From: Myxococcales bacterium
GTDB taxonomy: Bacteria > Myxococcota_A > UBA9042
DNA: 13,327 bases
Assembly (NCBI GenBank): GCA_037441385.1
Contig: JBBISH010000154.1
Coordinates: 1-13,327, forward strand
Direction: 5' to 3'
Below the pieces are notes generated by a model that made no database searches, was not told the DNA's origin, and saw only the letters and a list, made by a program, of their open reading frames with translations. Every line of letters begins with the position of its first letter. The stretch's first letter is position 1. Below, piece after piece: positions 757 through 13,327 of the stretch. A program made the translations under genes and the position numbers.

Positions 757-813
757 GTGCCGCAACGGCGCCCGACGCAGTGGACGGACCCGGGTGCACG
801 GACGAGGTTGGCG

Positions 814-3225
<2,412 letters not shown>

Positions 3226-8391: not shown

Positions 8392-8448
8392 CCGGTGCCC
8401 CAATTCCGACTGAAACGGCAACCTGCCAGCAAGCATCAAGGACACACG

Positions 8449-10620
8449 ATGAAACATTGGATGTGGGCAGCGGTTTTGGCCACGGCGATCGGCTGCGGCA
8501 GCACCGACCAGAGCGCCGCGACCAGCAAGGCCGACACGGCCGACAGCAAGGGCAGCAGCGACACGGCGACTTTGGGCGATGCCAGCGACGCCGCGGACAC
8601 CGCCGGCACGCCGACGCCGACCGGGGTCTGGGCCAGCGCCGCGACCTGCGAAAGCCATAGTTGCGGCGTGACGAGCCTGGGCTGGGTCGCCTGTTGGGGT
8701 GGCAACGCCGACGGTCAGCTGGGCGACGGCACCACGCAACCCCGCACCAAGGCAGCATTTGTTGGCGGGATGGACAAGATCGCCAGCGTGCGCACCTCGC
8801 CCGGCAACACCTGTGCCCTGGGCGTAGACGGCGGCCTGTGGTGCTGGGGCCACGCCATGGCCACGTTGGGCGTAGAGAATCCGGCGCAACCGGTGGCGCT
8901 CTTGCCGCCCAAGCCCGTGCAAAACGTGGCAATGTCCAAGTACACGGCGTGCGCGCTTTTTGACGACGGCAGCGCAGCCTGCACCTTCCAGTCGTTTGTG
9001 GGCGGCATCAAGTGGTTGACGCTAGAGGGGGTCAAGGGCGCCAAGGCCATCGGGCTGGGCGACGATCTGTTCTGGCTGAACAAGGACGGCAAGCTGCAAG
9101 TGGGTGGCTTGGACAACACGGCGGCGCCGCAACAGGTGAGCTCGCAACCCCTGGTGGATGTTCGGGTGGCCGGCGCACAGGTGGTGGGCCTGGACGCCAA
9201 AGGCCAAGTGTGGGTGCTGGGCGAGCACGGCCTGACGCCGCCGCCCGCCGGTTGCGACGCGGCCAAGTGCGACAAGCTGACCGCGCTGCCGGGAGCGACA
9301 GAAGTCGTTGCAGTGTCGCCCAGTTGCGGGATGCGCGCCGACGGAAGTCTGGTCTGCTGGCGCTACCTGCCGCAGTCGTGGCAGGGCAACAACGCCGCCC
9401 GGGTCGCCAGCGCCGCGGCCGTGGTGGGGCTGACGGGCACCACCCAAGTCGACAGCGGGCCAAGCACCTTTGCAGCCGTCAACACTGCGGGCGAACTGCG
9501 ATTTTGGGGCCATCACAGCGGCGTCAGCCCGGCAAGCCAGTGGCAACCAGGCGCGGTCGGCGGCGTGACGGGCGCCGGCGCTTTGATAGGCGGCAGCGGC
9601 GGTTACTGCGCCGTGGACGGCAGCGGCAAGCCCTGGTGCTGGGGCCAGCGCCCGGCCGACTCGGCCAGCTTGCCGGCCTTTGTCGATGTCGCCTCGGCGT
9701 ACCTGGGCCTGCCCGGCGCGACCAAGCTGGGCTACCACACCGCGGCGATGTGTGGCGTGGGAAGCGACGGTAAGGTGGTCTGCCAAGGCGGCGCCGCCCC
9801 CGCCGACGCCGGCCTGAAGATCCCCGATCGCGACTGCCAGCAAAAACCGTGCAGCGTCCCCGAAGCGGGCGACGGCATTACTGATATTCGCGCCGCCGCC
9901 ACGGGGGGCAGCCGCTGGTGTGCGGTGGATGCAGGCGGCACCCTGCGCTGTTGGGGCGACCCGGCCGGCCACGTCGCCGATCTGGGCACGGGCAGCACCG
10001 CCACCGACAGCGTGTGGCCACCGGTCGCCAATTCGGCGCTGCCGCCTGTCCAGACCACGTGCTTTACCGGCGGGTTCGGCTGCGCGTTGACGACCACCGG
10101 CCAGGTATGGTGCTGGGGCGAGCGCGCCAACTGGGGCGCCAAGGACAACGCGCCCAGCCAGGTGGCGGGGGTGAGCGGCGCGGTCGAGCTGCGCTGCCAC
10201 CTGAACGCCGCCTGCGTGGTCACGAGTGCCGGCGCGGTGCAGTGCTGGGGCGCCCACATGGGCAAGTCCGACGTGGAGCCATGGCCCGTGACCAGCATCG
10301 CCGGACTGCCGCCGGTCGTGACGCTGGCGATGGGCGGCGCGGCCGACGGCGAGCGCTATTGCGCCGTGGCCAAAGGGGGCCAGGTGTGGTGCTGGGGCCA
10401 GGGCGAGAACGGCCAACTCGGGATGGGCACCAAGGTTTTGGTCGCCAAAGTTCCGCAGGCCGTGCCGGGCTTGAGCAGCGCCGTCGCCCTGGCCGGGGGC
10501 GCGCAGACCCTGTGCGCCGCGCTGGCGAGCGGCCAGGTGCAGTGCTGGGGCACGCAGTTGCAGGGCGAGCTGGGCAACAGTGGCCCCGTGGCGACCAAAC
10601 CCGAAGTCGTCCCGCTGTAG
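8449..10620 (+). CDS. RCC1/BLIP-II-like repeat lipoprotein
   Basis: Signal peptide MKHWMWAAVLATAIGC (lipobox), a D/T/A/S-rich linker, then many C-A-x-x-x-x-G-x-V-x-C-W-G repeats, including CWGGNADGQLGDG and CWGQGENGQLGMG. AAGGA RBS before ATG 8449. Confidence 0.92.
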   Translation: MKHWMWAAVLATAIGCGSTDQSAATSKADTADSKGSSDTATLGDASDAADTAGTPTPTGVWASAATCESHSCGVTSLGWVACWGGNADGQLGDGTTQPRTKAAFVGGMDKIASVRTSPGNTCALGVDGGLWCWGHAMATLGVENPAQPVALLPPKPVQNVAMSKYTACALFDDGSAACTFQSFVGGIKWLTLEGVKGAKAIGLGDDLFWLNKDGKLQVGGLDNTAAPQQVSSQPLVDVRVAGAQVVGLDAKGQVWVLGEHGLTPPPAGCDAAKCDKLTALPGATEVVAVSPSCGMRADGSLVCWRYLPQSWQGNNAARVASAAAVVGLTGTTQVDSGPSTFAAVNTAGELRFWGHHSGVSPASQWQPGAVGGVTGAGALIGGSGGYCAVDGSGKPWCWGQRPADSASLPAFVDVASAYLGLPGATKLGYHTAAMCGVGSDGKVVCQGGAAPADAGLKIPDRDCQQKPCSVPEAGDGITDIRAAATGGSRWCAVDAGGTLRCWGDPAGHVADLGTGSTATDSVWPPVANSALPPVQTTCFTGGFGCALTTTGQVWCWGERANWGAKDNAPSQVAGVSGAVELRCHLNAACVVTSAGAVQCWGAHMGKSDVEPWPVTSIAGLPPVVTLAMGGAADGERYCAVAKGGQVWCWGQGENGQLGMGTKVLVAKVPQAVPGLSSAVALAGGAQTLCAALASGQVQCWGTQLQGELGNSGPVATKPEVVPL

Positions 10621-11372: not shown

Positions 11373-12485
11373 CTACCGGCGCGTCCACGCGTGCACCGGC
11401 TGTTCGCTGGTGGCGCCCATTTCGCCAAAACGCCCGCCCAGGCCAAAGCCCAAGCTGGTCGTCAAGCCCGCGACGAAATGCCCTGTTTTGGCCACCGAGA
11501 CAAAGCCGCCCAGCCACTTGACCCGCGGGATCAGGCCGGGGAACAGCTCGGCCTGGACGAAGTAGTCGGGCACATCCGCGACCTTGAGCGAGGCGAGCAG
11601 CGAGCCGCGGCGGTCGAAGAATAGCCCCACAGCCGGGACAAAAGTCACAGTATTCTCGACCAGATTGGGCTGGCTGCCGATGAGCTTGGTCGACGCGCCG
11701 CCGGCCGAAAGCGATAGGCCATAGCCGTCGTCGCGCTTGTAGCTCAGGCCAAAACTCGTCCACGCGCCAAAATAGCTGAACAGCGCAACTTGCTTGGCAA
11801 AAGGTAGCGGCCAGCGCGCGGCGTAGTAGTTGCCATGGTTGTGGAGCTCCAAATGCGGCCAAGTCAGCACCGGCGGCGTGGACCAGTCCATCAACTCAAT
11901 CTGGCGACTGAAGAATTGCCGAACCGCGGGCGAGCTGAACAGCAGAATCCCGCCCAGGTCGAACACCAGCATGTCGGCGATGCAATCGGTGTTGCGGCCG
12001 GTAACGCCTTTGTTTTCGATGGATTCGTTGACCAACGCCGCCGACATCAGCGTCAGCGCCGACCACAGCTTGGGCAGCGGCACCGCGTGAGCCTGGAACC
12101 ACTCGTCCAACATGGCAAAGGTCTGGCCGCCGCCCAGCAGGTGCAGGGTGTAGTTGGGCACCCAGCGCGCCGTAGCCGAGGTAAATGAAAGCGGAAAGAT
12201 CTCGCGGCTCAGGAAGCGTCCCCAACCCTCTTCGCCGACCCGCGAGGGGGCATGGGCCAGGTTGTCCACCACGTTGGCCGCGTTGGTCGCGTAGTCAAAG
12301 TGCCACGGGTCGCGAAGGGTATCGCCCAGCTGCATCATGTCCCAGCCGCGATTGACCAGGACGGTCGCTGGGTTGTACGTCGACTCCGAGCCAAAATCGT
12401 AGCCGTGGTAGAAGGACGGCTCGGCCTCTTGGGCGACCAGCGCCGAAGGCCACGCGGCGACCAGCGCGGCCAGCAGGGCGGTCAC
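11373..12485 (-). CDS. Secreted or outer-membrane hypothetical protein (weak DUF3943-like central helical region, beta-strand-like C-terminus)
   Basis: Signal peptide (ALVA|QEA). NYTLHLLGGG and LVNESIEN..IADMLVFDLGG helical region, followed by alternating aromatic/Gly strands. Good promoter upstream. Confidence 0.8.
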   Translation of the reverse strand: MTALLAALVAAWPSALVAQEAEPSFYHGYDFGSESTYNPATVLVNRGWDMMQLGDTLRDPWHFDYATNAANVVDNLAHAPSRVGEEGWGRFLSREIFPLSFTSATARWVPNYTLHLLGGGQTFAMLDEWFQAHAVPLPKLWSALTLMSAALVNESIENKGVTGRNTDCIADMLVFDLGGILLFSSPAVRQFFSRQIELMDWSTPPVLTWPHLELHNHGNYYAARWPLPFAKQVALFSYFGAWTSFGLSYKRDDGYGLSLSAGGASTKLIGSQPNLVENTVTFVPAVGLFFDRRGSLLASLKVADVPDYFVQAELFPGLIPRVKWLGGFVSVAKTGHFVAGLTTSLGFGLGGRFGEMGATSEQPVHAWTRR

Positions 12486-12554
12486 GGACGCGAAAGAGCG
12501 AGGCGGCGGCGTGGTGGGGCTCCGGGGCGGGCCGGGCGAGCCGCGCGGTCGGGT

Positions 12555-12583
12555 AGACTACGGTCGGCCGGGAGTGGGGTCAA
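12555..12583 (-). promoter_or_regulatory. sigma70 promoter of the 11373-12485 gene
   Basis: Minus strand: TTGACC (12583-12578), 17-nt spacer, TAGTCT (12560-12555). Confidence 0.6.
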
Positions 12584-12767
12584 GGCGGTGGAGCCGGGCG
12601 CGGTGGGCAAGAGTTGCGCGCGCAACTTTGGGGGTAGCCCACTGAAGTTGCAGTCGAAATTGGAAATGGGGTGGAGTTTTGCGCGGCGCAGCCTCTTGGG
12701 GATCGCTGGCTGGCGCGTCATCCCCTGCCTTACCGCTTGCCTACTCTGACGCAGCGCCGCAAGCCCT

Positions 12768-12839
12768 ATCGGGTAGGGGCGCCGGTTGCCCGACGCCCCT
12801 CCCACACCACCGGACATGCGGGTCCGCATCCGGCGGTTC
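12768..12839 (-). ncRNA. Group II intron catalytic domain V and branch-site domain VI
   Basis: DV is GAACCGCCGGATGCGGACCCGCATGTCCGGTGGT, with the CGC triad typical of IIC and an AY bulge. DVI is GGG-AGGGGCGTCGG-GCAA-CCGGCGCCCCT-A-CCC, with the bulged A at 12774 and a terminal AT. Confidence 0.96.
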
Positions 12840-13004
12840 GCGTGCTACGCGGTTCGGGTCCGCGTCTGAGCGGTCGGTCTTCGAGTCCGCCGCGCGCAGT
12901 TCGGCGCCCACGCCGCGTTCGCTTCGGGCTTCACCCTGGCAATCCGCCGTCCGGGCCAACGTAAGTGTTACCTGACGTTGCTGATTCTGCCGCGTTCTGC
13001 GCAC
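12840..13004 (-). pseudogene. N-terminal remnant of the intron-encoded reverse transcriptase/maturase
   Basis: GTG 13004 follows GAGGA at the start of DIV. The peptide RQNQQRQVTLTL..QGEARS..GAE..A resembles the RQK-x-QL-x-L..RGEA..G-x-E leader of IIC proteins. It joins DV after ~55 codons, with no RT0-7, YADD or X domain. Confidence 0.65.
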
Positions 13005-13327
13005 GAGTCCTCTCGCCTATTGGCTCTGCTCACGTTTGGCCCTTGGGCGCCGGGACCCTCCCAGCGCCTACTATGGCCTCTGCTGACTCCTGAGATCGCT
13101 TCGCGTCTTCTTTCGATTCCGCTAGCCGGCGCTGCCGGCACGATCCCAGGTCTCTCCGGGTAAGAACGCCTACTTTCACCGCGCGATTGCCGCATATACG
13201 TGCCAGGGTCTTGATGCTATTGGACTTTGCAGTGGATGGCCTGCTCGTCCACCCTGACCAGCCTCCGATGCGATTTCTGTTCGTCAACCCGCGGTTTTGC
13301 TCCACGCTTCCTCCAGACCTCGCCTCG

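Follow-up and report, generated by a model that had tools for sequence, protein, structure and literature searches.

The window analysed here is an entire contig of 13,327 nt, and its last 560 nt (12768-13327, minus strand) belong to a group II intron, assigned below to class IIC, with the contig ending inside domain I. Approximately 91 nt at the 5′ side of the intron are missing from the contig, the start of the intron being placed near 13418 by a 110-nt spacing rule taken from related introns; the 5′ splice site, the first helices of domain I (D1) and the 5′ exon are likewise outside it. The whole intron is estimated at approximately 650 nt, of which the 3′ 560 nt lie in the window, and the ribozyme without domain IV (DIV) at approximately 450 nt (560 − 200 + 91). 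The visible domains are listed in Table 1.

Judged from its gene content, the contig appears to be ordinary chromosomal context, free of mobile-element genes. A 370-aa gene (12485-11373, minus strand) lies on the same strand as the intron, approximately 280 nt downstream of it, and a scan of 12300-13327 for promoters and terminators found none. The 90%-cluster mate of this neighbouring protein is MBI5611055.1, a 379-aa protein labelled as from a Deltaproteobacteria bacterium MAG. The window is approximately 66% G+C and also encodes, on the plus strand, a 741-aa RCC1-repeat protein (8395-10620) and an 822-aa hybrid PAS histidine kinase with a receiver domain (757-3225). An amylase-family gene, a fatty-acid desaturase and a DUF3806 protein are found elsewhere on the contig.

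Table 1. Features of the group II intron in the window, listed from 5′ to 3′ along the intron
Feature	Coordinates	Strand	Basis and remarks
Domain I, partial	13164..13327	-	Rfam RF02001 group-II-D1D4-3, 120.4 bits, model positions 8-170; 5′ side cut by the window end
3′ end of domain I with short G+C hairpin	13126..13163	-	Between two Rfam matches; variable among relatives
Domain II, J2/3 and domain III	13039..13125	-	Rfam RF01998 group-II-D1D4-1, 56.4 bits
Domain IV remnant, 200 nt, without RT ORF	12839..13038	-	Gap between Rfam matches; one closed irregular hairpin
Retained DIVa / IEP translation-start region	12875..13022	-	nhmmer with relatives' profile, 22.0 bits, E 6.9e-7
Domain V, 30 nt	12807..12836	-	Rfam RF00029
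Linker and domain VI	12768..12806	-	Rfam RF00029; bulged A at 12774; 3′ end ...CCCGAT at 12768

Related introns and class

A blastn search of plasmids with the 560 nt of the intron returned 144 records, none covering at least 80% of the query. The best plasmid relatives were a Mesorhizobium intron with an annotated ltrA gene (L001) and a copy on an E. coli plasmid (L002), both of which match the same two Rfam families as the window across D1 to domain III (DIII). A D1-helix pattern specific to the window gave no match in a set of genome contigs from which the source genome is absent, and a broader pattern, built from the columns conserved in alignment A1, found 44 loci there, in Mesorhizobium, Sinorhizobium, Kosakonia, Brenneria, Raoultella and MAGs of several phyla. 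The relatives used throughout comprise 46 loci (L001-L046), which are 67–72% identical to the window over 160–277 nt of D1 and 83–90% identical over 43–53 nt of domains V and VI (DV/DVI). DV was detected in 26 of the 46; the other 20 gave no DV at E ≤ 1e-3, 10 of them because their contig stops within 900 nt of the D1 motif, and 10 in spite of at least 3.5 kb of room. The ORF in DIV is 460 aa long in 16 of the 46 loci and 469 aa in two. One of the 460-aa ORFs (P0001), taken as the representative IEP, contains the Pfam domains RVT_1 and GIIM and nothing else.

A GTG[CT]G motif lies 109–116 nt before the D1 motif in 42 of the 46 loci; in 37 of the 46 the distance is exactly 110 nt, and the letters at this point are GTGTG. 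The D1 motif used for this spacing starts at 13308 in the window. Most of the 42 intron starts mapped in this way are directly preceded by a G+C hairpin or by a terminator with a T-run, as judged by eye from folds.

Class IIC introns are marked by a small ribozyme and a short DV with CGC at the position of the catalytic triad. With approximately 450 nt outside DIV and a 30-nt DV with CGC, the intron of the window fits the marks of a small ribozyme and a short DV. The IEP of the relatives (P0001) is nearest to the GsI-IIC RT (E 2e-150) and then to the E. rectale IIC maturase (6.1e-100), followed by two chains of approximately 300 aa, 5hhj (2.5e-84) and 5hhl (6.8e-83), which were deposited as 'Retron-type reverse transcriptase' and which we take to be group IIC intron RT domains. 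LtrA (8.2e-39) and 6me0 (2.5e-38), presumably the T. elongatus IIB protein, are far less similar. The IEPs with which class C ribozymes co-evolve have an RT and a maturase domain but no endonuclease domain, in keeping with the Pfam content of P0001. IIC introns are described as typically located after terminators and poorly transcribed (PMC12584367). Both the GTG[CT]G motif of the relatives and the hairpins or terminators before it fit the published description of the class. On these grounds, together with the kinship of the relatives' IEP, the IIC assignment made in a preliminary description of the locus was accepted; the protein and target-site arguments are drawn from the relatives, and the intron of the window is placed in class IIC with them on its sequence. 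The first nine letters of its DV are also those found in the O.i.I1 DV primer given in PMC4748821.

Mesorhizobium cantuariense carries eight full-length IIC copies on one 7.9-Mb contig (L005, L009, L010, L012, L025, L031, L044 and L045), with one hairpin motif before the 5′ end in six of the eight (in L005 as a near-variant) and with differing 3′ flanks; the hairpins of L044 and L045 differ from the shared motif by one or two stem letters. These copies form a proliferating full-length family. In Kosakonia oryziphila, four contigs (L013, L016, L027 and L036) end approximately 180–210 nt past the D1 motif, in the same intron and at nearly the same point, showing that introns of this lineage break short-read assemblies.

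State of the ribozyme

An Rfam cmscan of the window gave three collinear group II matches on the minus strand in canonical domain order, as expected from the preliminary description of a group II ribozyme at this position. The match to group-II-D1D4-3 (13327-13164) has an E-value of 7.8e-25 and that to group-II-D1D4-1 (13125-13039) one of 3.7e-8, while the match of DV/DVI to Intron_gpII (12838-12768; E 7.6e-6) is weak, its 43.2 bits being only a little above the gathering score of 40. Taken together, the matches go far beyond what chance would produce. The bit scores are near those of the ORF-containing relatives, at 120 versus 136–137 for D1 and 56 versus 40–54 for domains II and III (DII-DIII). 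A DV/DVI profile of the lineage, made from 24 relatives and the window, matches 12839-12769 with an E-value of 3.7e-11, which is inflated and gives no independent confirmation because the window's own DV/DVI is among the 25 rows of the profile.

The core of J2/3 and DIII has 25 of its 26 columns invariant in comparison with the Mesorhizobium and E. coli relatives. DII is a hairpin with a GAAA loop and an internal loop, and the three non-canonical pairs that Rfam flags in it correspond to an internal loop also present in L001. In a consensus fold of D1-DIII, computed with RNAalifold from the window and 30 unique relatives, the window has canonical pairing at 60 of the 69 consensus positions (43–69 of 69 in the relatives). 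The commonest pair is found at 35 of these 60 positions, with one side changed at seven and both sides changed at 18. Three of the nine non-canonical pairs are alignment gaps in DIII and four fall in the variable, poorly aligned hairpin at 13126-13163.

The catalytic-triad position of DV (12835-12833) reads CGC. DV has a lower helix of 8 bp, then a 2-nt bulge and an upper helix of 4 bp, closed by GACC as it is in the relatives. Alignment with 23 relatives revealed two DV pairs that differ from theirs on both sides with pairing kept. The bulged adenosine of DVI is the seventh nucleotide from the 3′ end of the intron, and the CCCGAT terminus is common to 20 of the 23 aligned relatives. The visible ribozyme thus shows no disabling lesion. 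The claim that every IIC landmark is present and paired stands for the visible part of DI-DVI, including DV and DVI, which had been described as spared and in which pairing is maintained despite the double-sided changes; it does not extend to the 5′ ~91 nt, which lie off the contig. The compensatory changes date from the divergence of lineages that are approximately 70% identical and may therefore all predate the loss in DIV described below; they are a mark of intact structure and no sign of selection on the shortened intron itself.

Domain IV

The interval between DIII and DV is 200 nt long (13038-12839), close to the ~194 nt (13033-12840) first reported for a DIV without an RT ORF, and both the length and the missing ORF were borne out. 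In the window, 469 nt separate the D1 motif from DV, versus 1681–1765 nt in 24 of the 26 relatives whose DV was detected. None of the 26 has the short, ORF-less form; by this comparison the intron of the window is short by approximately 1.3 kb relative to its full-length kin. Full-length IIC introns of the GsI-IIC, O.i.I1 and A.v.I2 type, found in Mesorhizobium, on enterobacterial plasmids and in MAGs, share with the window the same Rfam D1 and DII-DIII models, DV and the CCCGAT 3′ end, but carry in DIV an RT/maturase of approximately 460 aa that the window does not have. At the other extreme, L019 (Sinorhizobium psoraleae) and L035 (a plasmid of Mesorhizobium sp. AR07) have D1-to-DV distances of approximately 4.0 and 4.3 kb, which suggests the insertion of another element into DIV, as a nested insertion or twintron.

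No RT similarity was found in the window: a tblastn comparison of 34 ORFs of the relatives with its whole length gave a minimum E-value of 0.009, and the matches at E < 0.05 inside the intron comprise only a short peptide coded by DV. Pfam likewise gave no match in three ORFs within the intron, in a plus-strand ORF at 12252-12749 or in the downstream gene. The 200-nt DIV on its own is predicted to fold as one closed domain (MFE −85.4 kcal/mol, z −2.63, equalled by 3 of 200 shuffles).

What remains of the protein-coding part lies at its start. An nhmmer profile of the DIVa and ORF-start region, built from seven unique relatives and covering 220 nt from a point 40 nt past the DIII motif, has its sole significant match in the window at 13022-12875, collinear with the flanking domains; an earlier, cruder profile had given an E-value of 3.2e-4. 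The IEP translation-start region had been described as spared, and this match agrees. From 5′ to 3′ the retained stretch consists of a purine-rich stretch, a GTG, a hairpin and approximately 43 codons of the former N terminus, which have stayed in frame. The GTG (13004-13002) stands where the relatives have ATG, with the purine-rich stretch only 3 nt before it, and the alignment shows the DIVa hairpin to be preserved through a sequence different from that of the relatives. At the other end, a profile of the last 150 nt of the relatives' ORFs matched nothing in DIV, its best hit (E 0.54) falling in another part of the window. The deletion break would accordingly fall between about 12875 and 12845, with essentially the whole of the RT/maturase gone. 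One protein with a GIIM domain (P0018) was considered as a counterpart of a C-terminal remnant and rejected, the alignment being convincing only over the DV-coded peptide.

A frame of 87 aa (12741-13004, minus strand) opens at the GTG, crosses the DIV remnant, DV and DVI, and extends beyond the intron by 27 nt of the 3′ exon. The former N terminus of the IEP accounts for the first ~43 codons of the frame, which has no Pfam match.

Origin and trans dependence of the intron

The reading that we favour, with a probability of about 0.6, is that the intron descends from an RT-encoding IIC ancestor by deletion of its ORF, that it has kept the ribozyme and DIVa, and that it needs an IEP in trans for efficient splicing and mobility. 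It builds on what the analysis established about the window, namely the identity and class of the intron, the loss of its ORF and the retention of DIVa, DV and DVI. A full-length IIC intron would have undergone an internal deletion of approximately 1.3 kb in DIV, which would have taken the RT/maturase gene from about codon 44 to its end and left the ribozyme domains together with DIVa around the former start codon. In studied introns, as in the Ll.LtrB literature, DIVa around the IEP start is the main docking site of the maturase. Without an RT/maturase gene the element cannot make its own protein and is thus non-autonomous; to splice efficiently in the cell, or to move at all, it would require a related IEP acting in trans, as has been shown for other ORF-less introns of bacteria.

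Bacterial group II introns that lack an ORF and are served in trans have been described (PMC2882425, PMC2504315, PMC4424553), and in nearly every case a related intron that encodes an IEP, a possible trans helper, resides in the same genome, C.te.I1 being the lone exception (PMC4424553, PMC3245105). The closest precedent is provided by T. elongatus, where 17 ORF-less introns stem from one DIVb deletion and are mobilised by the IEPs of related introns (PMC2882425). Like the intron of the window, these TeI3 introns combine a DIVb deletion, of approximately 1.5 kb, with an intact ribozyme, a retained DIVa and remnants of the N-terminal part of the ORF, and they depend on the IEPs of related introns (PMC2882425). 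They differ in that their IEPs are closest to EcI5 rather than to IIC proteins, and in that 17 copies with identical break-points and remnants of the ORF end exist, for which mobility was shown experimentally (PMC2882425); the window offers one known copy, which belongs to class IIC, shows no trace of a C-terminal ORF remnant and has no known driver IEP. On plasmid pE33L466 of B. cereus E33L, three near-identical ORF-less copies of B.c.I7 lie beside a full-length one (PMC2504315). Trans-activation by the full-length copy has been proposed for B.c.I7 and B.th.I2 (PMC2504315), whose setting, with three copies and a full-length parent in the same genome, is unlike the single contig of the window. 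As to the ribozyme, IIC constructs of 474–486 nt stripped of their ORF self-splice in vitro (PMC4748821).

The intron of the window falls under the ORF-less category of a genome-wide pipeline, defined in PMC8919778 as D1-DIV within 1.3 kb of DV with no RT. It is a further member of the rare but known ORF-less group II introns of bacteria, and no claim of a first is made. No natural ORF-less IIC intron, trans-mobilised or other, was found in the literature searched, part of it in excerpt, a body of work that includes neither Mohr et al. 2018 nor the main survey, Simon et al. 2008.

The main competing explanation, possible though on balance unlikely, is that the intron is a dead relic, a single immobile and decaying copy that has lost its ORF and is tolerated intergenically after a terminator, where the host needs no splicing. 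The pattern scan of the genome contigs and the proxies offered by the protein collection revealed no other copy and no parent. The 13-kb contig has no RT gene. An exact look-up of nine ORFs that overlap the intron or its 3′ flank (eight overlap the intron) found none of them in the protein collection, and the nine matches of the ORF in the D1 frame, at 48–54% identity and none of them near-identical, are spurious ORFs over related introns. The N-terminal IEP remnant, compared with 90 longer candidate proteins, had no match at E ≤ 10, which is weak evidence. These negatives from the protein collection are a weak proxy for copy number, as ORFs of this kind are not always reported by gene callers. 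From the way assemblers work, a contig that continues for 560 nt inside the intron would be unexpected if DIV, DV and DVI were repeated at high identity, and it mildly argues against many identical copies of the 3′ part. Broken copies are common in the lineage, given the 10 of 46 loci with room for a DV and none detectable, and the change of the former ATG to GTG with a purine-rich stretch just 3 nt before it would also suit a relic. A dead copy is, however, not what the absence of any disabling lesion in the visible ribozyme would suggest, and DIVa with its ~43 former codons is still recognisable and open, pointing either to a recent deletion, with the parent recently present, or to constraint from RNA binding.

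Whether the mobility allowed for by this favoured reading is actually in use is a separate matter. A MITE-like intron mobilised in trans is plausible by precedent (PMC2882425, PMC2504315, PMC4424553), but the searches described above, in which neither a second copy nor a candidate parent or driver IEP turned up, lend it no support. The break of the contig inside the intron could mark a repeat, intron-internal contig ends being common (10 of 46 loci). A fuller version, in which the intron is one of a SINE-like, actively proliferating family of IIC mini-introns within an uncultured lineage of high G+C content, a diverged full-length IIC intron supplies the IEP that drives them by recognising the retained DIVa, and the contig break is the sign of the repeat, is speculative and rather improbable.

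It is still more doubtful that the intron is self-sufficient, splicing without an IEP and perhaps kept for its position approximately 280 nt upstream of the 370-aa gene. The model for this is C.te.I1 of Clostridium tetani, likewise an ORF-less bacterial group II intron, which resides in an IEP-free genome and self-splices robustly in vitro (PMC4424553), and the intron of the window does lie upstream of the next gene and on its strand. C.te.I1 is, however, the single such case among 225 genomes surveyed and is not described as IIC in PMC4424553; the usual position of IIC introns after terminators, with poor transcription (PMC12584367), speaks against such a role, and the keeping of an IEP-docking region would be unexpected in an intron independent of any IEP. 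An assembly artefact, in which the ORF of a full-length intron was collapsed out during metagenome assembly, is very improbable: the metagenome-style contig does end inside the intron, and assemblies often break at introns of this lineage (10 of 46 loci cut less than 900 nt past the D1 motif), but no repeat is seen at the junctions, both of which would have to carry one for a collapse. Nothing in DIV corresponds to the last 150 nt of the relatives' ORFs, and the 200-nt DIV folds as one closed domain.

ORF-less group II introns have been put forward as a bacterial model for the dependence of introns on a shared, trans-acting splicing apparatus (PMC2882425). An IIC example that has kept the IEP-docking region would extend this picture of trans dependence to the terminator-targeting class, and the element would provide a compact natural ribozyme of approximately 650 nt for studies of splicing and targeting. 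As a single copy, incompletely seen, it adds an example and not a principle.

A minor observation concerns the protein collection itself. The ORF in the DIV frame has 14 protein matches, which cover 18–53% of the query and comprise only its DV-coded part. Many predicted metagenome 'proteins' (P0013-P0026) contain this peptide coded by a IIC DV, and some of them are C-terminal fragments of an IEP in which the GIIM domain reads on into DV. Such 'proteins' with a DV peptide are a recurrent annotation artefact.
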